Source of the DNA: Candidatus Staskawiczbacteria bacterium
GTDB taxonomy: Bacteria > Patescibacteriota > Minisyncoccia > Minisyncoccales > Staskawiczbacteraceae
DNA length: 64,000 nt
Direction of reading: 5' to 3'
NCBI GenBank assembly: GCA_903835075.1
Contig: CAILLM010000009.1
Coordinates: 25,274-89,273 of the forward strand
Position numbers and translations under genes: made by a program
The notes under the pieces: generated by a model
The model's input: only the letters and a program-made list of their open reading frames with translations
What the model was told of the DNA's origin: nothing
Database searches by the model: none
Shown: positions 5,390 through 50,080 of the stretch, one piece after another
Position numbering within the stretch: the first letter of the stretch is position 1
Layout of the letters: the number at the start of each line of letters is the position of its first letter

Positions 5390-6661
5390 ATGGATTTTAT
5401 TGGAACAATTAGATTAGTTTTTAGAACTCTGCTTGCTAGAAAGGGCAGGTCTTTTTTGACTATTTTGGGAATTGTTATTGGCGTGGCGGGAGTGATTATT
5501 ATAATTTCTTTGGGGGCTGGTGCGCAAAGTTTAATTTTGGGTCAGGTTTTAAAGTTGGGTTCAAATTTATTAAGTGTTTCACCTGGTGGAGGTGACGCCA
5601 ATGGTCCGCCCTCAGCTGTTTATGGAGTTACTGTCACAACACTTGTTAATTCAGATGCTGATGCATTGCGAAGCAAAACGCAAGTGCCACATGCTGTAGC
5701 CGTAAACGCAATGGTTCGTGGGCCAGCCACAGTTGTTTGGCAAAATAAAAATGTTGACACAAATTTTATTGGCACAGATAGTAGCTATCCAGATGTTGTA
5801 AGCTTTGCAATGAAAGAAGGACTATTTATTAATCAACAAGAAGCAGGAGGAAATGCGAATGTTGCTGTTTTAGGTTCTACGGTAGCAGATGAATTATTTG
5901 GTGGTACCGGCGTTGACCCCATTGGACAAATTATAAAAATAAAAAATTCTTCACAGTCTCAGCCAGGTGGAGTCCCCTTAAGAATTATTGGAGTGGTAAC
6001 GCCGAGAGGTAGTTCATTTTTCCAAGACAATGATGACCAGGTTTTTTTGCCTTTAACAATTGGGCAAGAGCAATTGTTGGGAGTGCATTATTTACAGGCA
6101 ATAAATATAAAAGTTGATTTGGCTGATAATATTGAACAAACAAGGGCTGACGTAACAAGAGTTTTGAACCAAAACCATCATATTTTGCGCGCAGTTGACG
6201 CTGATTTTACGGTTTATAGTATCGCAGACGCGGTGAAGGTTTTAAGCACAATTACAGATGCTTTAAGATTATTTTTAACAGCTATGGCAGCATTGGCTTT
6301 AATTGTTGGTGGAATTGGAATTTTAAATATTATGCTGGCAACAGTTGCCGAGCGTACAAGAGAAATTGGTTTGCGAAAAGCAGTGGGAGCTACAAATGGA
6401 GCTGTTATGCGACAGTTTTTAATTGAAGCAGGAGTGTTAACTTTTTTGGGTGGAGTTATTGGAATTATTATTGGAGCTGTAATTTCATTTATAATATCTT
6501 TGGTTATGAAAAGTTTGGGATATGATTGGCAATTTGTAATTTCTATCACGTCTGTTTTGTTAGCAGTTGGAGTTTCTATTTTAACAGGCGTAATTTTTGG
6601 CTTATACCCAGCATTAAAAGCATCAAAATTAAATCCAATAGACGCATTAAGGTATGAATAG
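5390..6661 (+). CDS. ABC transporter permease (MacB/FtsX-like)
   Basis: 423 aa. N-terminal TM, large extracytoplasmic domain, C-terminal FtsX-like 3-TM block ending NPIDALRYE. Confidence 0.85.
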   Translation: MDFIGTIRLVFRTLLARKGRSFLTILGIVIGVAGVIIIISLGAGAQSLILGQVLKLGSNLLSVSPGGGDANGPPSAVYGVTVTTLVNSDADALRSKTQVPHAVAVNAMVRGPATVVWQNKNVDTNFIGTDSSYPDVVSFAMKEGLFINQQEAGGNANVAVLGSTVADELFGGTGVDPIGQIIKIKNSSQSQPGGVPLRIIGVVTPRGSSFFQDNDDQVFLPLTIGQEQLLGVHYLQAINIKVDLADNIEQTRADVTRVLNQNHHILRAVDADFTVYSIADAVKVLSTITDALRLFLTAMAALALIVGGIGILNIMLATVAERTREIGLRKAVGATNGAVMRQFLIEAGVLTFLGGVIGIIIGAVISFIISLVMKSLGYDWQFVISITSVLLAVGVSILTGVIFGLYPALKASKLNPIDALRYE

Positions 6662-7895
6662 TAAGGCATTAACACAATCTATAAAGGCGCTGTCTGCGAA
6701 TCCTGTTCGTACGTTTTTAACTACTTTGGGAATTATGATTGGTATTGCAACAGTTATAACGGTTTTATCAGCTGGAGCAGGATTTAGAAGTTTAATAAAT
6801 GATGAAATAAAATCTTTGGGAAGTGATACTTTATTTATAAAAACGCGAGTCCCTCCTACAATAAAAAACAGGGCATCAACTTTAACTCCTGGAATTGCAG
6901 TTGGGATTACAACTTTTGTGCAAAGAGATTTAGATGATATTAAAAAACTAAACAATGTTACCAATGATTACGGAATGGTGACAGGAATGGCTATTGCTGG
7001 TTACCGCGACAACCAAAAAAATACTATTTATTTTGGATCTTCTGCAGAAAGATTTTCAATTGACCAGCACACTTTGAAAGAAGGGAGATTTTACACGCAA
7101 GCTGAGGATACGGGAGCCGCCCAAGTTGCAATTTTGGGAAGTAATATTGCAAAAAATTTATTTGTACAAGATGATCCTCTTGGAAAATTAGTTCACTTAG
7201 GAAATTTGAATTTTTTGGTGATTGGAGTATATGATGTTCAGGGATCTGTGGGCGGGCAGGGAGCAGATGATTCAATTTATGTGCCACTAGGGACTGCTCA
7301 GAAAAAAATGTTGGGAGTAAATTATATTACAGTAGCGGTTGTACAATTAAAAAATACAAATTTAGCTGATGCAACAGCTGCTCAAATTGCTTTAACCCTA
7401 GAACAAAATCATAACATTACAAACCCTGAAAAAAATGATTTCATTATCATGACGCAGGCGCAAGTTTTAGACATTTATAACACCATTTTTAATGGCATAA
7501 CAATTTTGTTAATTGCTATTGCATCAATTTCTTTGATTGTGGGTGGAGTAGGAATTATGAATATTATGTATGTGGTTGTTACTGAAAGAACAGCAGAAAT
7601 AGGGTTAAAAAAATCAGTTGGAGCAACCAATTCAGATATTTTAAAAGAATTTTTAATTGAATCTATTTTGGTAACTGTATTGGGGGGAGTTATCGGAATT
7701 TTATTGGGAACTTTATTAAGTTGGCTGGTTGCTGTTGTTGCAACAGCAAATGGTTTGACTTGGACGTTTACGGTACCCTTGTATGCAATTATAATTGCAG
7801 TGGGAGTTTCAGCTGCTATAGGAATTTCTTTTGGTGTCTTGCCAGCGAGGTCTGCAGCTAAATTAGACCCCATTGAAGCATTGCGTTACGAATAG
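6654..7895 (+). CDS. second ABC transporter permease (MacB/FtsX-like)
   Basis: 413 aa paralogue of the previous gene with the same architecture, ending DPIEALRYE. It has an 8-nt overlap with the upstream gene. Confidence 0.85.
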   Translation: MNSKALTQSIKALSANPVRTFLTTLGIMIGIATVITVLSAGAGFRSLINDEIKSLGSDTLFIKTRVPPTIKNRASTLTPGIAVGITTFVQRDLDDIKKLNNVTNDYGMVTGMAIAGYRDNQKNTIYFGSSAERFSIDQHTLKEGRFYTQAEDTGAAQVAILGSNIAKNLFVQDDPLGKLVHLGNLNFLVIGVYDVQGSVGGQGADDSIYVPLGTAQKKMLGVNYITVAVVQLKNTNLADATAAQIALTLEQNHNITNPEKNDFIIMTQAQVLDIYNTIFNGITILLIAIASISLIVGGVGIMNIMYVVVTERTAEIGLKKSVGATNSDILKEFLIESILVTVLGGVIGILLGTLLSWLVAVVATANGLTWTFTVPLYAIIIAVGVSAAIGISFGVLPARSAAKLDPIEALRYE

Positions 7896-7920
7896 TAGAT
7901 ATGGTAAAATTTAATAATAT

Positions 7921-8012
7921 CGCTCGGCAATAAACTTTTTTCCGATGCAGGTTACCCCCTTTGCCTCTACGGGCAAGTGGACCTGGGTCTACAAAAAGTT
8001 CATTGCCTCGCT
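7921..8012. repeat. long-hairpin repeat element, copy A
   Basis: Starts CGCTCGGCAATAAACTTTTT and ends AAAAAGTTCATTGCCTCGCT. The ends are imperfect inverted repeats shared with copy B at 15498..15575. The interior is GC-rich and self-complementary. Confidence 0.6.
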
Positions 8013-8020
8013 TAAATAAA

Positions 8021-8644
8021 ATGTACAAATTTAAATTTAAAAAATCATCAGGGCAAGCGTCAAAATTGCTTTTAGTTTTGGCGGTTGTTATTTTAGTGGC
8101 AGTAATTATTACTTTTTTAGTATTAAAAATGGCAGAAAAGCCAGCAGCTCCTGTAGCTCCTGTAGTCCAAACAATTCCACTTCCAGTTTACGAAAAACAA
8201 CTTGGTAATATTGATTTTATTTTTGAGTCTGCAATTGATAGGGGGCAGGTTTTAAAAGCTTCTGAAATTTTGAATAATTTATACGCAACTCATAGGGACT
8301 ATGTTATAGACAACCCCGGAGCTAAATTTATTCAAGTAACAATTGGTGCTCAAAATATGGGCACTATGAACACAAGCCAGGGGGCATGGATTATGCAAAA
8401 TATTGTTGATTCTAAAAATAGAGAGTTTGTTCCTTTAGATGGATTTAACATTAGTCCGTGGCTTCCTACTAATAATTCTTGCGGCGAATTGTTAAAGCCT
8501 GCATTTGACCCAACACCATGTACTAAAATTTATGAAGTTTCTAAAGAGTCTGCGGGGTTGAAAGTGAGGGTTGAAACCGGCAAAGATAATAGTCCCTCAT
8601 CTAGTAAAAAAGACACATTCTTAATAGATTTAATAGTTAAATAA
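8021..8644 (+). CDS. membrane-anchored hypothetical protein
   Basis: The ORF track starts at TTG 7961, inside the hairpin repeat. The first ATG (8021, MYKFKFKK) precedes a TM helix (LLLVLAVVILVAVIITFLVL). No recognised domain. Confidence 0.5.
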   Translation: MYKFKFKKSSGQASKLLLVLAVVILVAVIITFLVLKMAEKPAAPVAPVVQTIPLPVYEKQLGNIDFIFESAIDRGQVLKASEILNNLYATHRDYVIDNPGAKFIQVTIGAQNMGTMNTSQGAWIMQNIVDSKNREFVPLDGFNISPWLPTNNSCGELLKPAFDPTPCTKIYEVSKESAGLKVRVETGKDNSPSSSKKDTFLIDLIVK

Positions 8645-9091: not shown

Positions 9092-11566
9092 ATGCCCATA
9101 ATTATCCCAGGTCTTATTTTAGTTTTTTTGCTCATTGTTTTGGCTTTTATTATAGTTTTAAATGCTGAAACAAATGAAAAAAATGCTGTTTTTGGCGGGC
9201 TGGAGATGGTTTTATTTTTGGTGATGATGCCAAAAAATGCTTCTAAAAAAGAAGAAGAAGCAAAAAAAGAAGAGAAAAAAATAATATCTCAAATGGAGCA
9301 GGTATTTGCTAATTTTCTTTATTTAAAAAAAACTAAAGCTTTCCAAACTCCACCTGCTTGCGCCTTTGAAATTGCTTCTCAAATTGGAGGCTCAGATATC
9401 TCTTTTTATGTAGCAGTTCCAAAATATTTAGAATCGGTTTTTGAAAAATATGTACAAGGTGTTTATCCAAATGCTGTAGTTGATAAAGTTCCACAAGATT
9501 ATACAATATTTGAACCGCAAGGAGCTACTGCTGCTGCTTATTTGCAACTATCACAAAGCTCCCTTTTTCCAATAAGCACTTATCAGAATTTAGAAACAGA
9601 TCCCTTAGCATTAGTAACAAATAATTTAAGTAAAATTGCAACCAACGAAGGTGGGGCAGTGCAGGTGATAATTAGGCCATTGTCTAAATTAAATTTAAGA
9701 AAAAAAGGTGAGAAAGCTTTAAAAAAAATGCGAGAAGGAAAGCCAGTTAGAATTGCGGTTGCGGAAGCTTCTCATGGTCATGTAATGGAAGGGCTCCAAG
9801 AAGCATGGAACACCTTGTCGGGAAAAAGTTTGAAGAAAAAAGAAGAAGAAGCAGGGTTGCGAGATCCCGCTCAGCAAAAATTTGACCAAAAAGATTACGA
9901 GGCTATTCAAAGTAAAATTCAAAAACAACCATTCGAAACAAACATAAGAATTGTTTCCTACGCCCAAACGCAAGATAGAGCAGAAGAAATTTTGGGGCAC
10001 TTAACATCTGCTTTTAGTCAATTTTCTTTATCAGCCATAAACAGTTTAGAGCCCAAAGAAGTTCGCGGTAAGGAATTGCAAAAATTAATTTATGATTATA
10101 GCTTTAGAAATTTTAATATTACGCAATCAAATGTTTTAAATTTAGAAGAATTGGCAAGCGTTTATCACTTTCCAACGCAATATATAGAAACTCCATATAT
10201 TAAAGCAGCTAAATCAGCTACTTTTGCTCCGCCAACAAATTTACCAGAAAAAGGAGAAATAATTATTGGAAAAGTTTCTTACAGAAATGAAGAAAAGAAA
10301 GTTTATTTTGCAGATAAAAAAGATAGAAGAAGACATTTATATGTTGTTGGGCAAACTGGTGTTGGTAAGTCTGTATTTATGGAAGGTATGATTTTGCAAG
10401 ATATTATAAATGGCGAGGGTGTGGCAGTTGTTGATCCACATGGTGATATTATAGAACACATTTTAGCTAACATTCCGAAAGAAAGAGTTGACGATGTTGT
10501 TATGTTTGAACCCTTTGACATTGAAAGGCCATGCGGTTTGAATATGTTAGAATATGACAGCCCCGAACAAAAAGATTTTGCAGTGCAAGAAATGATTGCC
10601 ATATTTATGAAGCTTTTTCCGCCAGAAATTATTGGTCCAATGTTTGAGCACTACATGAGAAACGCCATGTTGGCACTTATGGCTGACAAAGATAACCCAG
10701 GCACACTTGTTGAAATTCCAAAAATGTTTACAGACCCAAGCTTTTTACAACAAAGAATGGCAAAAGTTACAGATCCTGTTGTGCGAAGTTTTTGGGTAAA
10801 AGAATGGGCACAAACAACAGGCTCTACAAGATCTGATATGTTGGGTTATGTTGTTTCAAAGCTTGGCAGATTTATTGAAAACGAAATGATGCGAAATATT
10901 ATTGGGCAATCGCACTCTGGTTTTGATTTAGCTCAAATAATGGATACTAAAAAAATATTTTTAGCTAATTTGTCTAAAGGTTTAACTGGTGAAGTAAATA
11001 GTTCTTTGTTGGGTTTAATTTTAATTTCAAAAATTCAAATGGCAGCAATGAAACGCGCACGCGTGCCCGAAGAACAAAGAGTCGATTTTTATTTATATGT
11101 TGACGAGTTTCAAAATTTTACAACAGATTCAATTGCCACAATTTTGTCTGAAGCCCGAAAATATAAATTGAATTTAATTATGGCTCACCAATATATGCCA
11201 CAATTAAAAGAAGAAATTCGCGATGCAGTGTTAGGAAACGTTGGAACAATTGGGGCATTTAGAATTGGAGCAGAAGATGCAGAAAATTTGGAAAAGCAAT
11301 TTGAGCCAGGGTTCTCAAGGTTTGATTTGGTAAATTTAGATAACTTTTCAATGATAATAAAAATGATGATTGATAATAAAATCTCAACACCGTTTAAAAT
11401 GAATACCTTGCCAATGCCAAAAGGAAAGCCCGAACTTGCTGAAGCAATTAAAAAAATATCAAAGTTAAAATATTCGCGCGCTAAGGCAATTGTTGAAGAA
11501 GAAATTACTAGCCGTTCATTTGTTGATTTGCCACCAGCCCCACCACCAATAGCGCCGTTGAAATAA
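9092..11566 (+). CDS. membrane-anchored P-loop ATPase of the FtsK/HerA/TraD-VirD4 (coupling-protein-like) kind
   Basis: 824 aa. N-terminal TM helix, Walker A VVGQTGVGKS, Walker B FYLYVDEFQNF, about 400 aa of unassigned sequence before the ATPase core. Confidence 0.65.
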   Translation: MPIIIPGLILVFLLIVLAFIIVLNAETNEKNAVFGGLEMVLFLVMMPKNASKKEEEAKKEEKKIISQMEQVFANFLYLKKTKAFQTPPACAFEIASQIGGSDISFYVAVPKYLESVFEKYVQGVYPNAVVDKVPQDYTIFEPQGATAAAYLQLSQSSLFPISTYQNLETDPLALVTNNLSKIATNEGGAVQVIIRPLSKLNLRKKGEKALKKMREGKPVRIAVAEASHGHVMEGLQEAWNTLSGKSLKKKEEEAGLRDPAQQKFDQKDYEAIQSKIQKQPFETNIRIVSYAQTQDRAEEILGHLTSAFSQFSLSAINSLEPKEVRGKELQKLIYDYSFRNFNITQSNVLNLEELASVYHFPTQYIETPYIKAAKSATFAPPTNLPEKGEIIIGKVSYRNEEKKVYFADKKDRRRHLYVVGQTGVGKSVFMEGMILQDIINGEGVAVVDPHGDIIEHILANIPKERVDDVVMFEPFDIERPCGLNMLEYDSPEQKDFAVQEMIAIFMKLFPPEIIGPMFEHYMRNAMLALMADKDNPGTLVEIPKMFTDPSFLQQRMAKVTDPVVRSFWVKEWAQTTGSTRSDMLGYVVSKLGRFIENEMMRNIIGQSHSGFDLAQIMDTKKIFLANLSKGLTGEVNSSLLGLILISKIQMAAMKRARVPEEQRVDFYLYVDEFQNFTTDSIATILSEARKYKLNLIMAHQYMPQLKEEIRDAVLGNVGTIGAFRIGAEDAENLEKQFEPGFSRFDLVNLDNFSMIIKMMIDNKISTPFKMNTLPMPKGKPELAEAIKKISKLKYSRAKAIVEEEITSRSFVDLPPAPPPIAPLK

Positions 11567-11859
11567 AATAAGATATTGGTATAATTATAACTAATGAATA
11601 ATCGTAATCAAAAAATTTTTCTTGCCACTTTAATTATAGGGGCCATATTTATTGGCATTTTTTTTATGCCGATTCCGGTAGCTCACGCCATAGATGATAA
11701 CACTCCTCCACAGTTAATTTCTTTTACATCTACTACTCCAGATGGAATGTATTTTTACAATGGTTCTATTAATATAACAGCAAATTTTGATGAAGATTTG
11801 TGCGATCCTTCATCTATGACTATTGTTTTAGATAATGGAGAATCGGTTGTTCTTTCTAT

Positions 11860-11866
11860 GGGGGGG
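11860..11866 (+). repeat. homopolymeric G7 tract at the frameshift point
   Basis: tctatgggggggagac; the longest G run I noticed in this AT-rich window. Confidence 0.9.
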
Positions 11867-12476
11867 AGACCTAAATACCCTGTCTGGGACATACAGTCCT
11901 CAAAAGGCCTCAAGCGCGCACCTTACAGTATCTTCTATTTCTGAAGTTCTGGTTACAGACTGCGACACTATTCCAAATACGAAGACAAATTATTTAGTTC
12001 CCAGTACGCCAAATAATCTCGGTGATACCTCTAGCATAGTTATAGATATCTATCCAAAAGTTATTTCATTTACATCTACTACTCCAGACGGCACTTATGG
12101 AGCAGGAGCTTCGATAAATATTACAGCAAATTTTGATAAGGCCTTAGATCCAAACACAGTTCCTTTTATGAATGTTCATTTGAATGTCAATGGAGTGGTG
12201 GTAGCCCTTGATCATCTTTCTGGTAGCAGTCTTTCTGGGACATACATCGTTCAAGATGGAGACTATTCTGCTAGTAAGCTTGCAGCTTCTTATAGTGATT
12301 ATTTTTCTGGAATACAAGATCTTTTTGGCGGTGGTGACCCAAATTTTCTGGAAGATTTCGGTAGTATTGAAAATAATTTAAATTATGCGAACAATATATT
12401 AATAGATGGTGTAGCTCCAGTATCGATTTCTGGGGGTATAGATGGTAATAATATAACGCTTTATTATAATAAAGCG

Positions 12477-12848
12477 TTAGACGTAAGTTCTGTTCCATCA
12501 ACTGGAGATTTTACAGCTTATATAAATGGTTCTCCGGTATCAATAAGTGGTGTTAGTGTTACGGTAAATACCATTGTATTACATTTAGAAGCTGGGGTTG
12601 TTAGTGCGTCCGACGTGGTTTATGTAGATTATGTTCCTGGAGAGCATTTAGTAAAAGATACTTTGGGAAATCAATCGACGCAATCTTTTTCAGAATTCAA
12701 TATAGTAAATAATAGCGTTATTTTATCTAATGCTACCATATCAAATGAGGACATTTCTCTTTTGTATAGCAAGGCCTTAGACGTAAGTTCTGTTCCATCA
12801 ACTGGAGATTTTACAGCTTATATAAATGGTTCTCCGGTATCAATAAGT
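12477..12848 (+). repeat. intragenic 300-bp-period domain repeat with a 72-nt identical core
   Basis: 12477..12548 is identical to 12777..12848 (ttagacgtaagttctgttccatcaactggagatttt...caataagt). It encodes LDVSSVPSTGDFTAYINGSPVSIS twice. Confidence 0.9.
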
Positions 12849-14876
12849 AGTGTTAGCATCACAGGTAACACCGTGGTGTTGCATCTTGCAAACCATGTGT
12901 CTTCGTTAGATGTAATTACTCTTGATTACGCTCCAACATCTAATATTATAAAAGATCAATCTGGAGTAGTGGTATCATCATTATCCGGACAAGACGTGAC
13001 AAATCATATAGGTGCAGCTATTTCGACGATTTCTTCTTCATTGGTATCACAAACTTCTAATTTTTTTACTAACGTGGGTTCATCGTCTTCTTTTTCTAAT
13101 TCGGCAGGAATGGTTTCTAATGGAAATTACATATATGTGACGCTAGGCAGTATTATGAAAATTTATGATATTTCTGGTCGTAATCCTTATTTAGTGAACT
13201 CTATTACAGTTGGTGAAGATGCAGAGAGAGCAGTGATAGCTGGGAACTACTTATATATGGCAGAGGGAACTAGTGATCAATTCCAAATATTTGATATTAC
13301 AATCCCCGTATCTCCAGTGTTATTAAGCACTACAAGCGTTGGTGGCCATGCTGAGGGAATGGATATCGATAGGAATTTTTTAATTATAACTAATTATGGA
13401 CTTAATCGCGTGCAAGTGTATGACGTAGTAAATCCTATGTCACCTTCTTTTGTTGGACAAGTGAGTACGTTTTCTTTGCCGGCTGGTGGCGTATTTTCCA
13501 ATAATCACTATTGGATAAATAGCGACGTAACAGGAGAGTCATCTATTGAATCAATTGCTATCTCTGATAACGGCACCCCCACACTTGATGGGCAAATAAC
13601 AATATCTGGAGCCGGTGGATTCTCAAATGAAATATCTGGAGATTATTTGTATACGCTTGATGATAACAGTTTCAATGGCGGAGACTATTTAAAGGTTTGG
13701 AATATTTCAAACCCTAGTAGTCCTAGTTTTGTTGGATCAGTTGATACTGGCGCCGGGAATGTAAATAATAGAGGGGTGATTGTTTTAGGAGATTATGCTT
13801 TTGTCGCGAATGGGGCTCATTTGCTTCAAGCTTATGATATTTCAACTCATGGTAACCCAGTTTTGATAAAGAGATTGTCACTTATTGATAATTCATTGAA
13901 CGGTGGCGCGCAAATTCTAAGTTCTGGAAATGAAATGTATGTTTTAAATAGAGGGCTTCTATATCATTTTACCACTAATTCTACGCCTGCTTTTTCGGCA
14001 ACCATAACATGGGCTACCGACCGCGCAACAGATTCAAGGATAAATTTTGGACCAACTGCTTATTATGGCGACACAATTTATTTTCCTAGCTTAGTCACGA
14101 ATCACTCAGTTGTTTTACCTGATTTATTAGCCGATACTACTTATCATTATCAAGTAGTCTCCACATATCAATTTGGTGACATTAGTACGTCGGATGATTA
14201 TACTATGAAAATTAATATTTTATCAAATAATGCCGCTGTTACTTCTTCGGTCTACACGGTTAGCTCTTTAACCAATAACGCTGGAACAATTACTAACGTT
14301 CCATATGGAACTTCTAAAGCTACATTTGAGACAGCAATATCCAAAGGAGAAGTCAATCAAACATGGAACGACTCAGGCGTAGCCAACACAGTGGTAACTG
14401 GAAATACTTTAGTAGTTACCGCACAAGACGGTTCAACGACAGCAATATACACAATCACGGTTAATGCTGCTCCTGGAGGAGGAAGTGGTGGAGGTGGTAG
14501 AATTTTCGTGCCACCAGTAATTGATAGAATTTTAACCATTCCCGCTTTAGAAAATGAAATAAAAAAGCTCCAGAATTTGATTCAACAGCTGTTGAATCAA
14601 AAAGAAAATCCATCGGGAGCCATTTTAACTAAAGATTTAAAGCTCGGTGATGTAGATGAACAAGCTAAAATATTACAACAATTTTTAAATACTCACGGAT
14701 TTGTGCTAGCCAAAACTGGCGTTGGTTCTCTTGGTTTCGAAACAACAAAATTTGGCTATGCAACTCAAGCATCATTAAAAAAGTTTCAACGCTTAAATGG
14801 AATAATTTCTAGCGGAAAATTAGGGCCAGTTACAAGAGATTTAATTAATAAAATTATAAAATCAGGTACCTAGAAA

Positions 14877-14926: not shown

Positions 14927-15487
14927 TTATGCGCGTTTTACGTAGGTTCCGGTTTCGGTGTTAACCTCAATAACGTCTCCTTCTTCTATAAATAATGGAA
15001 CCTGTATAACTGCTCCCGATTCCAAAATTGCTTCTTTTGTTCCGCCTTGAGCGCGGTCACCCTTAACTCCTGGGGCTGATTCTTTGATTATTAATTGAAC
15101 TTTTATTGGCAACTTAAAGGTAATAATTTTACCTTCAAATAAAATTCCCATTACAGGTTCATTTGGTTTTAAATATTTTGCTTGTGGGCCAATGTGGTCT
15201 TCTTCAAAAGAAAATCTATTTGATGGATCTTTAATGTCGCAGAAAAAATATTGTCCTTTTGTTTGGTATAAAAATTTAATATCTTTTTTTTCTAAATCAG
15301 CTTCATTAAAAACATCACCTTGTTGGAAGCTCTGTTCTTGAACTCTGCCATCAACCAAATTTCTAATTTTAGTTCTAATAACTGGTCGTCTTTGAGCCAT
15401 TTTCATTGAGTTGGCATCTAAGACTTCCCAAGGTTGACCCTCATAAATAAATTGAACTCCTGGTTTTAAATCTGTGTGTGTAAGCAT
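14927..15487 (-). CDS. efp: elongation factor P
   Basis: 186 aa; aligns by eye to bacterial EF-P along its full length (DLKPG..., KIRNLVDGRVQEQSF...). Confidence 0.9.
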   Translation of the reverse strand: MLTHTDLKPGVQFIYEGQPWEVLDANSMKMAQRRPVIRTKIRNLVDGRVQEQSFQQGDVFNEADLEKKDIKFLYQTKGQYFFCDIKDPSNRFSFEEDHIGPQAKYLKPNEPVMGILFEGKIITFKLPIKVQLIIKESAPGVKGDRAQGGTKEAILESGAVIQVPLFIEEGDVIEVNTETGTYVKRA

Positions 15488-15497
15488 TTGTTTATTT

Positions 15498-15575
15498 CGC
15501 TCGGCAATAAACTTTTTCTGCGAGGAGAGCCTCTCTGCGGGGCACCCTCTTCTCGAAAAAGTTCATTGTCTCGCT
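15498..15575. repeat. long-hairpin repeat element, copy B
   Basis: Same 20-nt ends as copy A (CGCTCGGCAATAAACTTTTT ... AAAAAGTTCATTGTCTCGCT). The interior differs but pairs (CGAGGAGAG/CTCTTCTCG). Lies directly upstream of efp. Confidence 0.6.
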
Positions 15576-15582
15576 CATTGTT

Positions 15583-16269
15583 TTATTCGACGATACGCCA
15601 ATCGACGTCTTCTTTTTTCCCAACATATTCTAACCATTCACCATCTTTTATTACAAACCATTTCTTTTTTGCTTCCGACCAAATCATCGGATTATTTTTG
15701 TAAAATGGTTTTTTAACAATTTCTTTTGGTTTCAACTGGTCTAGTTCAAGCCATTTTTTAAAAACTGTTTCAATGGCATAATCAAGTTTTCTTGTTTTTG
15801 CCCATTGCGAAACAGTGGTTATGGCCTCTTTGGCCTTTTCAGTTGAACCAGCTAACTCCAACAATTGCTTTGCTGGCTTGGTGAATCTAGAATAGATTAT
15901 CTTCTTTTTTTTAGCATTATTTTTCAATTCTTGCAACCCTACACCCTTGGTTTGAAAGTAGTGGGCAATAACATTTTGTATTGCAGTTTCTTCTTGTAAT
16001 TCCTCAAAATCTCTTATCACGCCGTAGCCTTTGGCGGAGGAGGACACAATATACTCTTCAATCTTTTTTGCATTTTTGTCACCAATGCCCAATTCGGTTA
16101 TTCCTTTTAATCCTTTCTCGGTATAAATTACACTAACATCAACTTGCAGACCGTCTAAAATACCAATAGCTTTTCTATAGGCTTTTATTTTGAAATTTAA
16201 AGCTTTGTCACCACGTAGTTCCAAAAGCTTTATCATCTCCCCAAAAATTTCTGATATTTCCTTGTTCAT
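15583..16269 (-). CDS. helix-hairpin-helix protein resembling the N-terminal region of family X polymerases
   Basis: 228 aa. The N-terminus (NKEISEIFGEMIKLLELRGDKALNFKIKAYRKAI...ITELGIGDKNAKKIEEY) looks like the Pol X 8-kDa/HhH region. No polymerase core is present. Confidence 0.45.
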   Translation of the reverse strand: MNKEISEIFGEMIKLLELRGDKALNFKIKAYRKAIGILDGLQVDVSVIYTEKGLKGITELGIGDKNAKKIEEYIVSSSAKGYGVIRDFEELQEETAIQNVIAHYFQTKGVGLQELKNNAKKKKIIYSRFTKPAKQLLELAGSTEKAKEAITTVSQWAKTRKLDYAIETVFKKWLELDQLKPKEIVKKPFYKNNPMIWSEAKKKWFVIKDGEWLEYVGKKEDVDWRIVE

Positions 16270-26472: not shown

Positions 26473-26543
26473 GGGCCCATAGTAAATCGGTATTACGCCT
26501 CCATGGCATGGAGGAGGGCCGGGTTCGATTCCCGGTGGGTCCA
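26473..26543 (+). tRNA. tRNA-Ala (anticodon GGC)
   Basis: Manual cloverleaf: acceptor GGGCCCA/TGGGTCC with G3:U70, D stem GTAA/TTAC, anticodon stem CCTCC/GGAGG with loop ATGGCAT, T arm CCGGG-TTCGATT-CCCGG, discriminator A. No encoded CCA. Confidence 0.85.
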
Positions 26544-26553
26544 CATTAGAAGT

Positions 26554-35776: not shown

Positions 35777-35794
35777 TTAGACAATACAATTTAA

Positions 35795-35889
35795 CTATCA
35801 AGAGTGTGGCGAGAGTTCTGGCTCAATGACCCACCAGCAACCTACGTAGTCGCGTAAGGTGCTAAGTCCTGCCCAAGAGGGAAAGATAA
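35795..35889 (+). promoter_or_regulatory. SAM-I (S-box) riboswitch
   Basis: CTATCAAGAG...GGCGAGAG..CTGGCTCAATGACCCACCAGCAACC...AAGGTGCTAAGTCCTGCC...AAAGATA matches the S-box core blocks by eye. Located immediately upstream of metK. Confidence 0.8.
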
Positions 35890-35897
35890 ATTATATC

Positions 35898-38603: not shown

Positions 38604-39371
38604 ATGAGTGCTATTTTATTTTATTCGTTGTGGGTTTTATTCTTAATTTTAATTTCGGGAATTCGTGTTATTAAAGAATACGAAAGAGCAGTTATTTTCT
38701 TTTTGGGCAGGCAGACCGTTATTCGTGGGCCTGGCTTAATTTTCTTGGTGCCAATTTTTGAAAAAATGGTGAAGGTAAGTTTTAGAACTGTAACAATGGG
38801 AATTCCTTCACAAAAAATTATCACAAAAGATAATGTTTCCATAGACATTGCAGCTGTTGCATATTATCATGTTGTAGATCCTAAAAAAGCAGTTATTGCT
38901 ATTGAAGATGTTTTTAGTGCAGTAAATCAAATAAGCCAAACAACAGTTAGAAATGTTGTTGGACAATTTATGTTAGATCAATTGTTGTCGCAAACAGCAG
39001 ATATAAATGAACAAATTAAAAATGTTATTGATGGACATACCGAACCTTGGGGCGTGCAAGTAACAGCTGTAGAAATTAAAGATATTATTTTACCAGACAA
39101 CATGCAACGTGCAATGGCTAAAGAAGCCGAAGCTGAAAGAGAAAGAAGGGCAAAAATTGTTGCAGCACAAGGAGAATTTCAAGCTGCTGAGAAATTAGGC
39201 CAAGCAGCTGACTTAATTGCTGCACATCCTGTTGCGTTGCAATTAAGAACATTGCAAACAATGTCTGAAATTGCTACAGAAAAGAATTCAACAATCATTT
39301 TTCCAGCTCAATTTATGACAACAGTTAAAGAAGCTTTAGAAACTATTCGCGGCGACAACAAAAACAAATAA
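38604..39371 (+). CDS. SPFH/band-7 (stomatin-prohibitin) family protein
   Basis: 255 aa. N-terminal TM and typical EYERAVIFFLGR...TKDNVSIDIAAVAYY...ERERRAKI. Confidence 0.85.
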   Translation: MSAILFYSLWVLFLILISGIRVIKEYERAVIFFLGRQTVIRGPGLIFLVPIFEKMVKVSFRTVTMGIPSQKIITKDNVSIDIAAVAYYHVVDPKKAVIAIEDVFSAVNQISQTTVRNVVGQFMLDQLLSQTADINEQIKNVIDGHTEPWGVQVTAVEIKDIILPDNMQRAMAKEAEAERERRAKIVAAQGEFQAAEKLGQAADLIAAHPVALQLRTLQTMSEIATEKNSTIIFPAQFMTTVKEALETIRGDNKNK

Positions 39372-39390
39372 ATTTTTGTAAAAATGTAAA

Positions 39391-39414
39391 ACCGCTCGTA
39401 AGGGCGGTTTTATT
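39391..39414 (+). terminator. hairpin (GTAA loop) terminator
   Basis: ACCGCTC-gtaa-GGGCGGT ttttatt. Confidence 0.6.
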
Positions 39415-39516
39415 ATGCTCTGAAGATTTTTGGCCTTGCTTGTTTTTTAAAAAAGAGTAAAAATAAATATGCACCTTTACAATGTTTAGCGTGCAAGCTC
39501 AACCAATCAGAATGAA

Positions 39517-42285: not shown

Positions 42286-42297
42286 TTCCAAAACATC

Positions 42298-42314
42298 TTA
42301 TTGTGCGACAAATT
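42298..42314 (+). repeat. island motif copy 1 (TTATTGTGCGACAAATT)
   Basis: 17/17 identical to 45293..45309; core ATTGTGCGACA at 42300..42310. Confidence 0.9.
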
Positions 42315-42376
42315 AACATTAAACCATCTTTGAAATAGGGTAGTTTTTTGGTAGTATTAAATAAACAAATAAACAA

Positions 42377-45285: not shown

Positions 45286-45292
45286 GATCATT

Positions 45293-45309
45293 TTATTGTG
45301 CGACAAATT
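45293..45309 (+). repeat. island motif copy 2 (TTATTGTGCGACAAATT)
   Basis: Core at 45295..45305, 9 nt after the endonuclease stop codon. Confidence 0.9.
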
Positions 45310-45325
45310 GATAAATAATTGTTGA

Positions 45326-45988: not shown

Positions 45989-45999
45989 ATTCTATTTAT

Positions 46000-46010
46000 A
46001 TTGTGCGACA
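46000..46010 (+). repeat. island motif copy 3
   Basis: ATTGTGCGACA 11 nt after the stop codon of the HEPN-signature gene. Confidence 0.9.
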
Positions 46011-46073
46011 CTTTAATAAACTCAGCGTAGGCGTAACGTCGCGAAAGATACCTTTACCGAACAAGCAAAGAAT

Positions 46074-47013: not shown

Positions 47014-48141
47014 ATGAGAAGCGGAAAATATATCAGCCAAGTATCTAAAGATAAAATTCCATACAAGGCATTCAGCCCGGGGAATTTACCATTCAAAATT
47101 AATTTTGACGAAGAGCTTCAATCCTTACTTTCTAAGGCTGACTTAGCATTGGGGAGACTGGATGGAATTGCTGAAACATTACCTGATGTTGATTTTTTCA
47201 TTTTGATGTATATCAGAAAGGAGGCCACGCTTTCCAGCCAAGTTGAAGGGACACAAGCCACCTTCGCGGATGTTTTGAATGCAGAAGCAAAAATAGAAGA
47301 CTTAGAAATACATAAAGATGTAGACGAAATTTTGAATTATGTTGATGCAATGAATTATGGACTAACTGGCTTAAAAAAAATCCCCTTATCTTTAAGGTTA
47401 ATAAAAGAGATCCATCGACTTCTACTTTCAGGTGTTAGGGGTGAATGGAAAGAGCCAGGAGAATTTAAGAAAACACAGAATTGGGTTGGAGGAACCGCTA
47501 TTGAAAGAGCGTCTTTTATTCCTTGCCCACCACAAGAAGTGATGGCGGCTCTGGATAACTTTGAAAAATTTCTGCATCAAAATTCTCAACTTCCAGTTCT
47601 AATTAAAACTGGTTTAATACATAGTCAGTTTGAAAATATTCACCCATTTTTAGATGGTAACGGCAGAATCGGTAGACTTTTAATTACATTTTATTTGTGC
47701 CAACAGAAATCTTTGGACAAACCGTTGCTATATCTTTCAGATTTTTTTAAGAAATATCGCCAAGAGTATTATGACAGACTCAATGCAGTTCACGAAAAAG
47801 ACGATATAGAAGGCTGGCTTAAATTTTTTCTTGAAGGAGTAGCCACAACTGCAAGTCAGGCTGTCGAAACAAGTAAAAAGATAATTAAACTGAAAGAAGC
47901 GGATATAAAAAAAATAGCAACCCTTGGTAGATCCACTATCAAGGCTATGGTAGTTTTTAGTTATTTATTTCACACACCAACCGTAAGGGTGAAAGATGTA
48001 GAAAAAATTACGGGATTAAAAAATCCTAATGCTTTAGCATTAATAAGTAAATTAGTGAAAATAGAAATTCTAAAAGAAATTACAGGCAGAAAAAGAAACA
48101 AAGTTTTTAGATATCAAAACTACGTAAACCTTTTCGAGTAA
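47014..48141 (+). CDS. Fic family protein (AMPylase-type) with a C-terminal wHTH-like region
   Basis: Fic motif HPFLDGNGRIGR; 375 aa. Confidence 0.85.
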   Translation: MRSGKYISQVSKDKIPYKAFSPGNLPFKINFDEELQSLLSKADLALGRLDGIAETLPDVDFFILMYIRKEATLSSQVEGTQATFADVLNAEAKIEDLEIHKDVDEILNYVDAMNYGLTGLKKIPLSLRLIKEIHRLLLSGVRGEWKEPGEFKKTQNWVGGTAIERASFIPCPPQEVMAALDNFEKFLHQNSQLPVLIKTGLIHSQFENIHPFLDGNGRIGRLLITFYLCQQKSLDKPLLYLSDFFKKYRQEYYDRLNAVHEKDDIEGWLKFFLEGVATTASQAVETSKKIIKLKEADIKKIATLGRSTIKAMVVFSYLFHTPTVRVKDVEKITGLKNPNALALISKLVKIEILKEITGRKRNKVFRYQNYVNLFE

Positions 48142-48146
48142 TTTTT

Positions 48147-48157
48147 ATTGTGCGACA
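48147..48157 (+). repeat. island motif copy 4
   Basis: ATTGTGCGACA 5 nt after the fic stop codon, before the bidirectional terminator. Confidence 0.9.
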
Positions 48158-48171
48158 AAACATTATTAAAT

Positions 48172-48201
48172 AAAAAGTAGGGAATTAAGCCCTACTTTTT
48201 T
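48172..48201. terminator. bidirectional terminator between fic and the YdeI-like gene
   Basis: GTAGGG-aattaag-CCCTAC flanked by an A-run and a T-run. Confidence 0.75.
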
Positions 48202-48452
48202 GGTCTATGCGGACAGCCGGGCCAACAGCAGGGCCGACGCATTTCATCTATAAGTTCCGAGCAAACTCTTTTAACGTGGTCGGCTCTTGTTTCAGCTCCT
48301 TTAACTGAAATAGTCCAACAGATCCACTCGTTGCGAGATAGTGGAGTTATGTCTTCCCATTTTGCCAATGCTTTTGGATTGGCGAGTAATGCCTTTTTTA
48401 AATCAGCTGGTAATTCGTGCACTACACCATTTGAAATATTTTTATTAACCAT
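48192..48452 (-). CDS. YdeI/OmpD-associated family protein
   Basis: 86 aa. LPADLKKALLANPKALAKWEDITPLSRNEWICWTISVKGAETRADHVKR resembles the YdeI C-terminal family. Confidence 0.55.
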   Translation of the reverse strand: MVNKNISNGVVHELPADLKKALLANPKALAKWEDITPLSRNEWICWTISVKGAETRADHVKRVCSELIDEMRRPCCWPGCPHRPKK

Positions 48453-48467
48453 ATTATTAATACGTTT

Positions 48468-49463
48468 TTATTTTTTATCTGGATCACTGTGGAATTGGTG
48501 ATGTATGTCACGCAATCGTTTATTTGTTACGTGCGTATAAATTTGAGTCGTTGCGATATTTGAGTGGCCAAGAAATTCCTGAATGCTACGAAGGTCAACT
48601 CCTTGATTCATTAAATCTGTTGCATAACTGTGGCGCAATGTGTGCGGAGTTGTGAAAACTGGAATGCCTGAAAGTAGGGCATATTTTTTTACAATGCGTT
48701 CAATTGAACGCGGGGTGAGCCTTGGATCAGCTTTTTCGGACTTGTCGCCTGCACTGAGCGTAGCCGAAGGGCGAAAGTTTATAAACAAGGCTTTTGAATG
48801 CATACTTTTTGCAGCGTTCCTAATTTCTAAATATTTTTTTATATATTCTAGCGCGCGTTCAGAAAAATAAACTGTGCGAGGTTTTCCACCTTTTCCAATT
48901 ATTCCAAGTTCTAAATCTTTTCTGTTTTTTAAGTTTTCAAATTGTTCGAGGTTTAACGCAACTAATTCTGCAATACGCAAACCAGTTGAAAAAAAGCTCT
49001 CTAAAATAGCGCGGTCCCTGATACTTATATCATCCTTAGGATCTATAGATGACAAAAGCTTGGCAATTTGATCTAAGGTAAGGAATTTTATGCTTTTTAG
49101 GCCTCTATCTGCCTTTGCAAGGGCTATTTTGTCAGGAGGGGTGCATTGTATGTCTTTTGCCACAAAATAGCCCAAAAGGGCTCTTAGGGCTATTAAATAG
49201 TAGTTTTGTGTGCCTTTGCCTAGCAATTTGCCCGTAGCAGGGCTTGGGGTGCGGGAAAGGTACAAACGGTATGCCCAAATATGCTCCGAGGTCAATTGAT
49301 GGGGGAGAATAGAGCTATTTTTACTTATATCAAGCCAGCTAAAAAATTTAATTAAATAATTTTTATAATTCTCCTGAGTATTTTTTCTTAAACCTTTTTC
49401 AACTTCACAAAAATCAAGAAAATCTTGAAGATGTTGTTTAATTGGTTTGTTAGAATTATTCAT
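48468..49463 (-). CDS. tyrosine recombinase (XerC/XerD/integrase family)
   Basis: 331 aa. N-terminal SAM-like core-binding domain, TGLRIAEL, HTLRHSYATDL and LGHSNIATTQIYTHV. Confidence 0.85.
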   Translation of the reverse strand: MNNSNKPIKQHLQDFLDFCEVEKGLRKNTQENYKNYLIKFFSWLDISKNSSILPHQLTSEHIWAYRLYLSRTPSPATGKLLGKGTQNYYLIALRALLGYFVAKDIQCTPPDKIALAKADRGLKSIKFLTLDQIAKLLSSIDPKDDISIRDRAILESFFSTGLRIAELVALNLEQFENLKNRKDLELGIIGKGGKPRTVYFSERALEYIKKYLEIRNAAKSMHSKALFINFRPSATLSAGDKSEKADPRLTPRSIERIVKKYALLSGIPVFTTPHTLRHSYATDLMNQGVDLRSIQEFLGHSNIATTQIYTHVTNKRLRDIHHQFHSDPDKK

Positions 49464-49514
49464 TGTTTTAGATGAATCTTAATTGGGCCCCTTGGGATAC
49501 GTCGCTTTACCTAC

Positions 49515-49525
49515 ATTTTGCGACA
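49515..49525 (+). repeat. one-mismatch copy (ATTTTGCGACA) of the island motif in the recombinase leader
   Basis: Lies 14 nt beyond the predicted -10 of the recombinase promoter. Confidence 0.5.
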
Positions 49526-49538
49526 TTGCCTCTATCTC

Positions 49539-49567
49539 TATAATACACCCCCCTCAGCCCAGGTCAA
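49539..49567 (-). promoter_or_regulatory. predicted recombinase promoter
   Basis: Minus strand reads TTGACC-N17-ATTATA, with a second TTGACC immediately upstream. Confidence 0.4.
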
Positions 49568-49595
49568 GGTCAAAATAGACGACCTAAACATCAAC

Positions 49596-50065: not shown

Positions 50066-50076
50066 TGTCGCACAAT
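50066..50076 (-). repeat. island motif copy 5 (inverted)
   Basis: tgtcgcacaat on the plus strand. This is ATTGTGCGACA on the minus strand, 4 nt after the exonuclease stop codon. Confidence 0.9.
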
Positions 50077-50080
50077 AGTT

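Follow-up and report, generated by a model that had tools for sequence, protein, structure and literature searches.

A dispersed family of palindromic repeats in Patescibacteria, probably mobile, with conserved arms and interchangeable cores

The 64,000-nt stretch of Candidatus Staskawiczbacteria DNA analyzed here in full (the window) carries two copies, A and B, of a long-hairpin element. With a probability of about 0.72, they represent insertions of a non-coding, non-autonomous mobile palindromic element dispersed in Patescibacteria, and the family is best described as a selfish repeat with the behavior of REP, MITE, and Rickettsia palindromic (RPE) elements; the two copies in the window are most likely passengers. 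A further 181 copies were found in public genomes and metagenomes (142 unique sequences at 152 distinct loci over all search sets; 58 copies in the first set). All share the anatomy of A and B, and the family is spread through Patescibacteria, above all Staskawiczbacteria-like genomes. It is apparently undescribed: no account of it was found in the searchable literature, and Rfam returned nothing at the gathering score, with E-values up to 10 giving only noise matches of 12-14 bits, in agreement with the sequence-only reading that first pointed to these hairpins and recognized no known family.

Two copies in the window and their neighbors

The initial description of two long hairpins in the same orientation, with conserved 20-nt ends, is borne out by exact end repeats, by folding, and by a covariance model. 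The 20-nt 5′ end CGCTCGGCAATAAACTTTTT occurs only twice in the 64 kb even when up to three mismatches are allowed (at 7921 and 15498, both on the + strand; chance expectation, 0.01), and the 3′ end AAAAAGTTCATTGYCTCGCT likewise has exactly two occurrences (7993 and 15556). The copies had thus been placed correctly, but the conserved unit starts one base earlier, at 7920 and 15497. Copy A folds as a single long hairpin at -38.2 kcal/mol (z = -5.2), and so does copy B at -32.7 kcal/mol (z = -4.4). The covariance model, trained on copy-A-type relatives, matches the window only at A and B, with 110 and 46.5 bits on the + strand versus 34 and 25 bits on the - strand; weak matches at 9991-10059 and 50068-50126 are noise, and another at 39347-39440 has an ordinary terminator-like hairpin inside. 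Copies A and B are the only two family members in the window. Their parts and surroundings are as follows:

6654..7895, + strand: gene for a MacB/FtsX-type permease (Pfam MacB_PCD, FtsX); its stop codon lies 24 nt 5′ of copy A
7902..7910, + strand: TGGTAAAAT, resembling an extended -10 promoter element by its sequence, 9 nt 5′ of copy A
7920..8012, + strand: copy A, entire element, 93 nt (110 bits, covariance model)
7920..7926, + strand: copy A 5′ terminal motif TCGCTCG, in direct repeat with the 3′ end of the element
7927..7941, + strand: copy A 5′ arm GCAATAAACTTTTTT, pairing with 7993-8006
7942..7992, + strand: copy A GC-rich core hairpin, core cluster 1, of the “...CCCCCTTTGCCTCTACGGGCAAGTGG...” type (covariation in relatives)
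7993..8006, + strand: copy A 3′ arm AAAAAGTTCATTGC (3′-end repeat, fold, family arm covariation)
8007..8012, + strand: copy A 3′ terminal motif CTCGCT
8021..8644, + strand: gene for a membrane protein of 207 aa that matches no Pfam family; its ATG lies 8 nt 3′ of copy A
14927..15487, - strand: efp (Pfam EFP_N, EFP, Elong-fact-P_C); its ATG lies 9 nt from copy B
15497..15575, + strand: copy B, entire element, 79 nt (46.5 bits, covariance model)
15497..15503, + strand: copy B 5′ terminal motif TCGCTCG
15504..15517, + strand: copy B 5′ arm GCAATAAACTTTTT (5′-end repeat, fold, family arm covariation)
15518..15555, + strand: copy B GC-rich core, core cluster 0, CTGCGrGGAGAGCCTCTCTnCGGGGCACCCTCtyCTCG
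15556..15569, + strand: copy B 3′ arm AAAAAGTTCATTGT (3′-end repeat, fold)
15570..15575, + strand: copy B 3′ terminal motif CTCGCT
15583..16269, - strand: gene for an HHH_8-domain protein; its stop codon lies 7 nt from copy B

Copy A occupies the spacer between the permease and membrane-protein genes and is co-oriented with both. Copy B fills the 95-nt spacer between the HHH_8 stop codon and the efp start codon; it is antisense to both genes, yet it matches the strand on which most genes of the region lie. That each copy sits immediately 5′ of a gene start, as first reported, holds (8 and 9 nt), but each also lies just 3′ of a stop codon (24 and 7 nt). The 7.5 kb between A and B contain efp and other housekeeping genes. 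A 125-nt spacer is identical in all eight of the strain contigs that encode an identical 207-aa membrane protein, and the element is kept in every one of them.

Are these hairpins parts of defined transcription units? Promoter and terminator scans found no such framing of copy A or B. No intrinsic terminator was called at either; on both strands, a T-run precedes the core and an A-run comes after it. The TGGTAAAAT motif, retained at the empty orthologous site in L020, was not called in a simple promoter scan; were it a genuine promoter, the downstream mRNA would begin with copy A as its 5′-terminal hairpin. A Shine-Dalgarno-like motif is absent from most genes in the window.

Conserved arms and recurrent cores

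Members of the family are 70-100 nt long and are built from direct-repeat termini (TCGCTCG...CTCGCT), AT-rich inverted arms of ~15 bp, and a GC-rich core hairpin; they have no ORF of their own. The 5′ motif TCGCTCG is essentially invariant over the 142 unique copies. The ends had been read as imperfect inverted repeats, which they are, except that the irregularity of the arm in the window is an A.C mismatch, not a gap. Across the family, a conserved extra base or A.C mismatch is found 6-7 bp into the arm and is missing in only 9 of the 138 parsed copies.

Pairing in the arms is maintained by compensatory change. Mixed arm variants in the MAFFT alignment led to a poor RNAalifold consensus, and arm covariation was thus counted directly: at the closing pair, 22 copies have C-G and another 22 G-C; at the inner pair, 17 have C-G and 29 A-T; and the lengths of the A-run and T-run are matched (2/2 in 24 copies, 3/3 in 24), with two discordant cases. 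The interiors of A and B, reported as unrelated, do lack any relation to one another, yet both are recurrent core types, well represented by relatives elsewhere; ~25 such types were distinguished, of which A and B represent two, and cluster 0, the copy B type, is the commonest, with 55 unique relatives. The earlier suggestion that the GC-rich interiors pair with themselves is upheld by covariation in the cores. The formal test was restricted to one core type: in the alignment of 20 relatives of copy A, 97.4% of the cells are paired, six pairs are changed on both sides, and none of 500 shuffles reaches the observed value; one U.G pair is retained in 17 of the 20. Structural covariation thus extends beyond the shared ends, to arms and cores alike.

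The two strands of the core are not equivalent. C-TNCG-G loops (C-UNCG-G in RNA) number 36 on the + strand versus 1 on the - strand and are present in most core clusters, and G.U pairs favor the + strand by 194 to 96. However, the - strand hairpin is the more stable overall in 111 of 141 copies, which complicates statements about which strand folds.

Insertion sites, reading frames, and orientation

Comparison of orthologous sites points to mobility of the element. L020 and L055 have no copy in the spacer that houses copy A, and L117 has one there with another core; L055, in turn, is filled at a different spacer, where the window and L020 have none. At the copy B locus, L020 and L004 have another core, and in L002, which is 99.7% identical from efp onward, an unrelated AT-rich palindrome replaces the sequence 5′ of efp. 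Core differences between genomes at one orthologous site recur at the efp, MacB, rsmH, and mnmA sites. Conversely, near-identical copies occupy unrelated loci within single genomes (L040, L062), and copy B differs at only 2 of 79 positions from a copy inside mnmA of JBAZUH010000001 (L081). Copy density spans 2 per 64 kb to 5 per 8 kb and varies more than 10-fold among related genomes. Nested copies are present, as are 39 orphan arms: new copies land within old ones, and when the outer parts are lost, orphan arms remain and a fixed site acquires another core. On phages the element was not seen: a search of viral contigs with the termini pattern gave four matches, all GC-rich chance hits.

The typical insertion lies in an AT-rich spacer, 0-10 nt past a stop codon and ~11 nt ahead of the next ATG; the median distances are 4 nt from stop codon to element and 11 nt from element to ATG, with a narrow spread. 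The left flanks of 33 copies are T/A-rich and have no common motif, and the flanks of these copies share nothing beyond the element. Target-site duplications, which had been proposed as something to look for at empty sites, were not seen, in a comparison that involves empty sites only 72-80% related to the filled ones. TCGCT is absent from the empty sites in L020, L243, and L244, so the terminal motif TCGCTCG is the element's own and not a target duplication; a 5-bp duplication of TCGCT is ruled out by the same sites. At mnmA, 12 nt are swapped for 78 nt. The element thus appears to insert with no target-site duplication, a provisional conclusion in that the exact junctions rest on empty sites that are ~72-80% identical.

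Not all copies are intergenic. In-frame copies are found in MnmA (eight loci), TGT, TruB, LigA, and a MiaB-like protein, in two cases in antisense orientation. About half of 120 MnmA homologues have inserts at one turn, which corresponds to a hairpin turn by alignment to solved structures. The element enters surface loops of proteins, with a length that preserves the reading frame: the mnmA inserts measure 78, 69, and 114 nt and are stop-free. An intron or translational bypass was considered for these copies and rejected, since the inserts are multiples of three without stops and the frame would be lost upon splicing at the TCGCT repeat. A search with the 32-aa translation of copy B against 1.84 billion representative sequences gave no match at E ≤ 0.001, a threshold of significance that such short peptides cannot reach; a 52-aa concatenate of two reading frames yielded no candidate in a word index.

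How is the element oriented? In spacers between tandem genes, 77 of 86 copies are sense and 9 antisense. Where the flanking genes lie on the majority strand of the region, 41 copies are sense and 1 is antisense; where they lie on the minority strand, none is sense and 4 are antisense, with copy B in addition, a class of only 4-5 loci, two of them orthologous. Of the 46 tandem-gene loci for which a regional majority strand is clear, 45 have the element oriented with the region, the gene-strand majority serving here only as a proxy for the direction of replication. Exceptions are L165, between genes, and L026, inside LigA. Orientation therefore tracks the regional gene strand and not the adjacent genes, which explains why copy B runs antisense to efp. 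Such behavior speaks against a leader or small RNA and in favor of a replication-linked mechanism that acts on single-stranded DNA.

A plausible scheme can be outlined. The strand-specific features (arm bulge, C-TNCG-G loops, and core G.T wobbles) all fall on one strand, which is nearly always the sense strand of the regional majority, taken here to be the lagging-strand template. Movement of the element, or tolerance of it, would thus probably involve a folded single strand at the replication fork. A putative enzyme would act in trans, by a logic analogous to that of IS200/IS605, REP-RAYT, and attC hairpins. No transposase or other mobilizing gene was found near the copies; tblastn with IS608 TnpA and E. 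coli RAYT as approximate queries gave no match in ~1 Mb of flanking DNA, a weak negative, and no pair of arms enclosing a longer segment, as expected of an autonomous partner, was found in the same ~1 Mb of loci. As a side effect of insertion, a very stable hairpin would be present in the MacB-operon mRNA (copy A) and, in its antisense form, in the efp leader (copy B).

The C-UNCG-G bias, the G.U bias toward the + strand, and the regular distances to stop codon and ATG hint at selection on the sense RNA; the elements may not be purely selfish.

Alternatives, known systems, and implications

If the element is transcribed within operons, could it be kept for what it does in the mRNA? On this account it would be a host-beneficial intercistronic hairpin that protects the upstream cistron from 3′ exonucleases, serves as a processing site, or sets the stop-start spacing in an organism largely without Shine-Dalgarno motifs; E. 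coli REP sequences are thought to act on mRNA in such ways. The preponderance of sense copies between tandem genes, the narrow distances to stop codon and ATG, the loops and G.U pairs concentrated on the + strand, the U.G pair retained in copy-A-type cores, and the scarcity of Shine-Dalgarno-like motifs in the window all agree with it, and some orthologous spacers always hold a hairpin of one type or another. However, copies are antisense at every minority-strand locus, including copy B at efp; the same element is tolerated in frame in five different enzymes, twice antisense; orthologous spacers of related genomes are simply empty; copy density differs more than 10-fold among such genomes; and no T-run follows the hairpin. 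We regard a role in the mRNA as the main cause of the family as unlikely, though it is the most serious competitor to insertion by a mobile element. Far less credible is an independent small RNA gene or a riboswitch-like leader controlling the downstream gene, as the sequence-only reading had offered in its suggestion of a conserved structured leader or sRNA. Both window copies fold strongly and end 8-9 nt from a start codon, and a possible extended -10 element lies just 5′ of copy A, but Rfam has no match even at E-values up to 10, no terminator or other transcription-unit framing is seen, copies follow the region and occur inside reading frames, copy B lies antisense to efp, genes downstream of the element are unrelated over 152 loci, and the cores, which would have to bind the ligand or target, are interchangeable at one locus. 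We give this idea next to no weight.

Recombination offers a different view, in which the hairpin is a single-strand site of the attC or Xer kind, TCGCTCG/CTCGCT is the crossover region, and the core is irrelevant. The conserved ends, variable center, and maintained structure would fit, as would the conserved extrahelical base on one arm, a feature of attC, and the link of orientation to the regional strand. In GC-rich Clostridia MAGs, moreover, arrays of short modules are punctuated by a 25-nt palindrome, TTTGCCTCGCTCATCGCTCGGCAAA, in which the termini are fused head to tail, the pattern expected of a circle junction or of units integrated in an array. Against this, the attC boxes RYYYAAC and GTTRRRY are unmatched in most copies, the commonest arm variants are devoid of AAC and GTT (neither is present in the arms CCAAATCAAATTTTT and AAAAATTTATTTGG, for example), no gene cassettes lie between copies (efp and housekeeping genes fill the interval from A to B), no integrase is seen near them, and the putative crossover sequence is absent from empty sites. 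The attC reading is rejected on the failure of the box consensus, and a recombination site of any such kind seems very improbable.

Insertion of a mobile palindrome is thus the preferred reading, and several known systems provide points of comparison. The RPEs of Rickettsia are short palindromic repeats found between genes and in frame in unrelated housekeeping genes, with no known transposase (PMC10969869). The likeness is close in these respects: palindromic repeats of a reduced-genome bacterium, intergenic copies along with an in-frame peptide at a tolerated position, and no known transposase. The present family is shorter (70-100 versus ~100-150 nt), combines conserved arms with GC-rich cores that can be exchanged, is bounded by direct repeats, obeys a strong rule of orientation, and resides in another host phylum; the resemblance appears to be one of behavior, and by host and description the family would be set apart from RPE families, with no relation in sequence claimed. 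REPs measure 20-40 nt and are tagged at one end by GTAG or CGTC (PMC3733652). Like REPs and BIMEs, the family consists of intercistronic, transcribed, multi-copy GC-rich hairpins, often just past stop codons, and single-strand hairpin recognition has been proposed for the spread of both; unlike them, it has TCGCTCG/CTCGCT termini and long AT-rich arms, and no RAYT gene was found in the loci searched by tblastn with approximate queries. Because its members are 70-100 nt long and lack a GTAG/CGTC tag, the family is not a REP. MITEs such as Correia, ERIC, and Chunjie elements are likewise small, non-coding, and dispersed between genes, with terminal inverted repeats and nested or truncated copies, and they too insert within operons without breaking them. 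The inverted repeats described here are subterminal, inside a direct repeat; target-site duplications are not seen in the available filled/empty comparisons (72-80% related), and ~1 Mb of loci yielded no autonomous IS sharing these ends; on this basis the family falls outside the MITEs. The first characterization as MITE/REP-like was right as to kind, given the dispersal, the lack of coding capacity, the filled and empty sites, and the nesting, but the family fails the strict definitions of both.

The IS200/IS605-derived PATEs come close in other ways: they make no target duplication, have irregular hairpin ends, and are oriented by replication direction, an established property of IS608 and ISDra2 insertions. 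Yet no tetra- or pentanucleotide target is conserved in the left flanks of the family, the element consists of a single long hairpin with inverted-repeat arms and not of separate left- and right-end hairpins, and neither TnpA nor TnpB was found. TCGCT itself was considered as a target of this type and rejected; it would have to pre-exist in the target, and the empty sites lack it. With attC sites the family has in common imperfect palindromes with conserved ends, a variable center, and extrahelical bases, the importance of one strand, and a replication-related orientation, but the R and L box consensus is not matched and there are neither cassettes nor an integrase. The GC clusters of yeast mitochondria, which are sometimes found inside coding sequence, are also GC-rich palindromic mobile units in an AT-rich genome; the family differs in being bacterial, in its AT-rich conserved arms, and in showing no AT-dinucleotide duplication.

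A more ambitious proposal, which we consider doubtful, would join these strands. The termini TCGCTCG-GCAA...TTGC-CTCGCT may mark a cross-phylum hairpin superfamily, comprising dispersed units in Patescibacteria and head-to-tail arrays in gut Clostridia joined by TTTGCCTCGCTCATCGCTCGGCAAA, whose members would move as folded single strands at the fork through a putative enzyme, would leave no target duplication, and would be renewed by landing in older copies, with a swap of the core. UNCG-capped sense hairpins would then punctuate compact, Shine-Dalgarno-poor operons, and the same units would be translated as loops in essential tRNA-modifying enzymes.

Patescibacterial genomes are among the smallest and most compact in the bacteria, and mobile DNA is usually said to be scarce in them. 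This family shows that a selfish hairpin repeat can succeed there all the same, using the few nucleotides between stop and start codons and exploiting even surface loops of essential enzymes, and it explains part of the unexplained protein insertions in this phylum. Its copies are natural strain-typing markers and a likely cause of broken or chimeric metagenome assemblies, and, being strictly oriented, they allow the direction of replication to be read in fragmentary genomes. Should both the single-strand mechanism and the common termini be confirmed, they would point to a mobilizing enzyme that is not yet recognized.

Copies A and B and the family they represent

The sequence-only reading had described two look-alike hairpin repeats in the same orientation, and its description is borne out: the 20-nt 5′ end occurs at exactly two sites in the window with up to three mismatches allowed (chance expectation 0.01), the 20-nt 3′ end likewise at exactly two, and both copies, on the + strand, fold as single long hairpins (copy A, −38.2 kcal/mol, z = −5.2; copy B, −32.7 kcal/mol, z = −4.4). 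Their position was essentially right, except that the conserved unit starts one base earlier.

Conserved units of the element in the window
7920-8012, + strand: copy A
15497-15575, + strand: copy B

A covariance model built from copy A relatives and scanned across the 64 kb finds only these two, scoring copy A at 110 bits on + vs 34 on − and copy B at 46.5 vs 25. An ordinary hairpin at 39386-39413 (AAAACCGCUCGUAAGGGCGGUUUU, then a U-rich stretch), close behind the ORF at 38604-39371, surfaced as a weak match and looks like an intrinsic terminator. The window also holds internal direct repeats (58383-59263; units of 71 and 206 nt) within a 753-aa ORF (57431-59692, −).

The window is AT-rich (~35% G+C), and its long syntenic stretches are 72-80% identical to MAGs labelled Candidatus Staskawiczbacteria (patescibacterial, or candidate phyla radiation, CPR). 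Copy A lies 24 nt after the stop codon of a MacB/FtsX permease gene and 8 nt before the ATG of a gene for a 207-aa membrane protein, all on the + strand; copy B sits in the 95 nt that separate efp from an HHH_8-domain gene; these two genes are on the − strand, so copy B is antisense to each of them. Between the copies are genes for a VirD4/TraG-like coupling protein (9092-11566) and a 1012-aa surface protein with SWM repeat, LVIVD and peptidoglycan-binding domains (11835-14873); they look like type-IV-secretion or competence genes, which are common in Patescibacteria.

Copies in relatives, whose count had been proposed as a check, are numerous. A degenerate pattern of the termini, run on species-representative genomes, hits 113 loci, ~45 of them real copies, all in low-GC Patescibacteria MAGs, and the remainder chance matches in GC-rich genomes; a tighter pattern run on metagenomes gives 120 loci. 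Searching all low-GC loci by arm turns up 181 full copies, which amount to 142 unique sequences and 152 distinct loci, plus 39 orphan arms. All copies are built alike, running from TCGCTCG through a 5′ arm ([G/C]CAA(A)T.AA.TTTTT), a GC-rich core and a complementary 3′ arm to CTCGCT. The cores sort into ~25 clusters, the largest (55 unique members) containing copy B and the second (17 members, 20 with its sister cluster) copy A; the interiors of the two copies thus have no relation to one another, as had been said, but each is a recurrent module with relatives elsewhere.

Evidence for mobility and insertion into genes

Filled and empty sites are one line of evidence that the element is mobile. 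Loci L020 and L055 align with the sequence flanking copy A in the window but have no element there, and L117 carries a copy with a different core at that site; conversely, the spacer ahead of the VirD4-like gene holds a copy in L055 but none in the window or L020. Cores also differ at orthologous sites upstream of efp (window vs L020 and L004), downstream of MacB, upstream of rsmH and inside mnmA. In L002 (1-105), which from efp on shares 99.7% identity with the window, a different AT-rich palindrome (z = −3.2, one strand) replaces copy B immediately upstream of efp. The short contig L004 (1-1206) has an efp 97.5% identical to that of the window, and its element and flank upstream of efp are identical to those of L020, a genome only ~80% identical; L004 has either recombined naturally at the efp spacer or is an assembly chimera.

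Near-identical copies occupy unrelated loci (L040, 4418 vs 6806; L062, 5589 vs 7104), and copy B differs from the mnmA copy of L081 at 2 of 79 positions. Density varies between 2 per 64 kb, in the window, and 5 per 8 kb, in a ribosomal-protein operon of L040. Complete copies are nested between the arms of an outer copy in L104, L109 and L115, and orphan 5′ or 3′ arms adjoin complete copies; nested insertion followed by loss of the outer parts could swap the core at a fixed site. The flanks compared have nothing in common outside the element, and the filled and empty sites, whose comparison had been suggested as a search for target-site duplication, reveal none. The empty sites examined lack TCGCT, so the terminal direct repeat is part of the element.

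The element also enters coding sequence. Eight loci have it inside mnmA, always at a single turn that follows ATGHYA.T; the first three inserts examined (78, 69 and 114 nt) are multiples of three, in frame and free of stops, and at one mnmA site the 12 nt of the KNGK turn give way to 78 nt. Roughly half of 120 MnmA homologues carry inserts of 4-68 residues there (ancestral form, GHYA.IKNGKLLKAKDKNKDQTYFL), including whole copies, nested copies and remnants of the element (TSLGNKLF...KSLLPR) and at least two other insert families; in alignments to solved MnmA structures, the insert takes the place of a short hairpin turn. The KNGK turn is a general insertion hotspot in Patescibacteria. The other repeat families there read ...REIRNSKSEIRN... 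and ...KLQTTNYKLQTA... (P0009, P0040, P0049, P0060, P0064, P0067, P0069 and other homologues), and the peptide KLQTTNYKLQT recurs in a MiaB-like protein of L209. Further in-frame copies lie in TGT, TruB, LigA (antisense) and a MiaB-like enzyme (antisense), with Pfam support in each case from a domain split around the insert. Rickettsia palindromic elements (RPE) behave in the same way, inserting in frame into proteins (PMC10969869).

Fold, orientation and mechanism

The structural covariation proposed as a further check is present in the arms and in copy-A-type cores. The arms close with C-G in 22 copies and with G-C in 22. Where the 5′ arm has an additional A, the 3′ arm has an additional T (24 + 24 concordant, 2 discordant), and next to the T/A runs 17 copies have a C-G pair and 29 an A-T pair. 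In the copy-A core type, 97.4% of cells are paired and six pairs have changed on both sides, a level approached by 0 of 500 shuffles and by no slid control. All but 9 of 138 parsed copies share an irregular position 6-7 bp into the arm, where a C usually bulges from the 5′ arm and both window copies have an A.C mismatch.

Could this hairpin act in RNA, for example in REP-like mRNA stabilisation? Such a role, which is compatible with mobility, draws on the core loops, C-UNCG-G in 36 cases on the + strand vs 1 on −, and on regular spacing: the median distance is 4 nt from stop codon to element and 11 nt from element to ATG. Core G.U pairs number 194 on + vs 96 on −; the arms have 67 on − vs 16 on +, an excess that follows from the A.C mismatch on +, and the − strand forms the more stable hairpin overall in 111 of 141 copies. 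As the primary explanation, however, an RNA role is opposed by the in-frame copies, the empty orthologous sites and the orientation. Copies between tandem genes are sense in 77 cases and antisense in 9. When both neighbours are encoded on the strand that carries most genes of the locus, the split is 41 sense to 1 antisense; when they are on the minority strand it is 0 to 4, and window copy B adds a fifth antisense case. Exceptions are L165 and a diverged copy in LigA of L026. The orientation bias is thus not set by local transcription. The leader or sRNA suggested from sequence finds no support, as no promoter or terminator bounds either copy and the element has no match in, or sequence relation to, any Rfam family. 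The only Rfam and ARAGORN matches in the window are a SAM (S-box) riboswitch (35792-35892, +; 58 bits) and a tRNA-Ala(GGC) gene (26473-26544, +).

The strand of most genes is routinely taken as a proxy for replication direction; since orientation tracks it, we infer that the + strand of the element is normally on the lagging-strand template. In the window, genes lie on + up to ~48 kb and on − beyond, and cumulative GC skew peaks at the same place (about 48000-50000), which resembles the convergence expected at a replication terminus. Orientation tied to replication typifies elements that act as folded single strands, as in attC recombination and the insertion of IS200/IS605. Added to the absent duplication and the bulge in the hairpin, it points to a single-strand, replication-coupled mechanism as the likeliest, at a probability of about 0.4, in which the element would be handled as a folded single strand. 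No mobilising enzyme was found in the loci searched.

The MITE/REP-like label given from sequence named the right kind of element, one that works as REP, MITE and RPE repeats do. Both strict definitions exclude it, however: it lacks the target duplication of a MITE and differs from REP in size and tag (PMC3733652). No description of such repeats in Patescibacteria was found in the literature searched, whose coverage is incomplete, and novelty is unproven.

Related termini and consequences for the window

Among the 'chance' matches, rabbit-gut Clostridia MAGs (54-59% G+C) have both termini fused as a 25-nt palindrome, TTTGCCTCGCTCATCGCTCGGCAAA. This palindrome reads from the 3′ end of the CPR element across CA into its 5′ end, and it separates GC-rich modules of ~60-75 nt in head-to-tail arrays at many loci. 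Because it fits 22 specified pattern positions, coincidence is unlikely. The same termini, with quite different, GC-richer arms, bound hairpins in Shapirobacteria and Minisyncoccia MAGs, which are probably sister subfamilies.

Loci sharing the termini
L044:4348-4860, L066:3041-3165, L070, L077, L087, L092, L103, L110: Clostridia arrays
L041:4211-4286, L054:5838-5909, L074:6780-6852: TCGCTCG[G/C]CAA...TTG[G/C]CTCGCT hairpins

The Clostridia palindrome suggests that the conserved cis-acting part lies in the termini, and it shows how a circle junction of the element would look.

Leaders in the window are mostly A/T-rich and without a Shine-Dalgarno motif, so its absence after the elements is not special. 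Four copies of the motif TTATTGTGCGACAAAT stand a short way upstream of gene starts (42296-42323, 45291-45318, 45996-46020 and 48145-48170), for example before the ORF starting at 45326, and look like a shared operator or promoter element of a small regulon. Copies A and B are most likely passengers; what they leave in the window is a very stable hairpin close to two start codons, at 8-9 nt.
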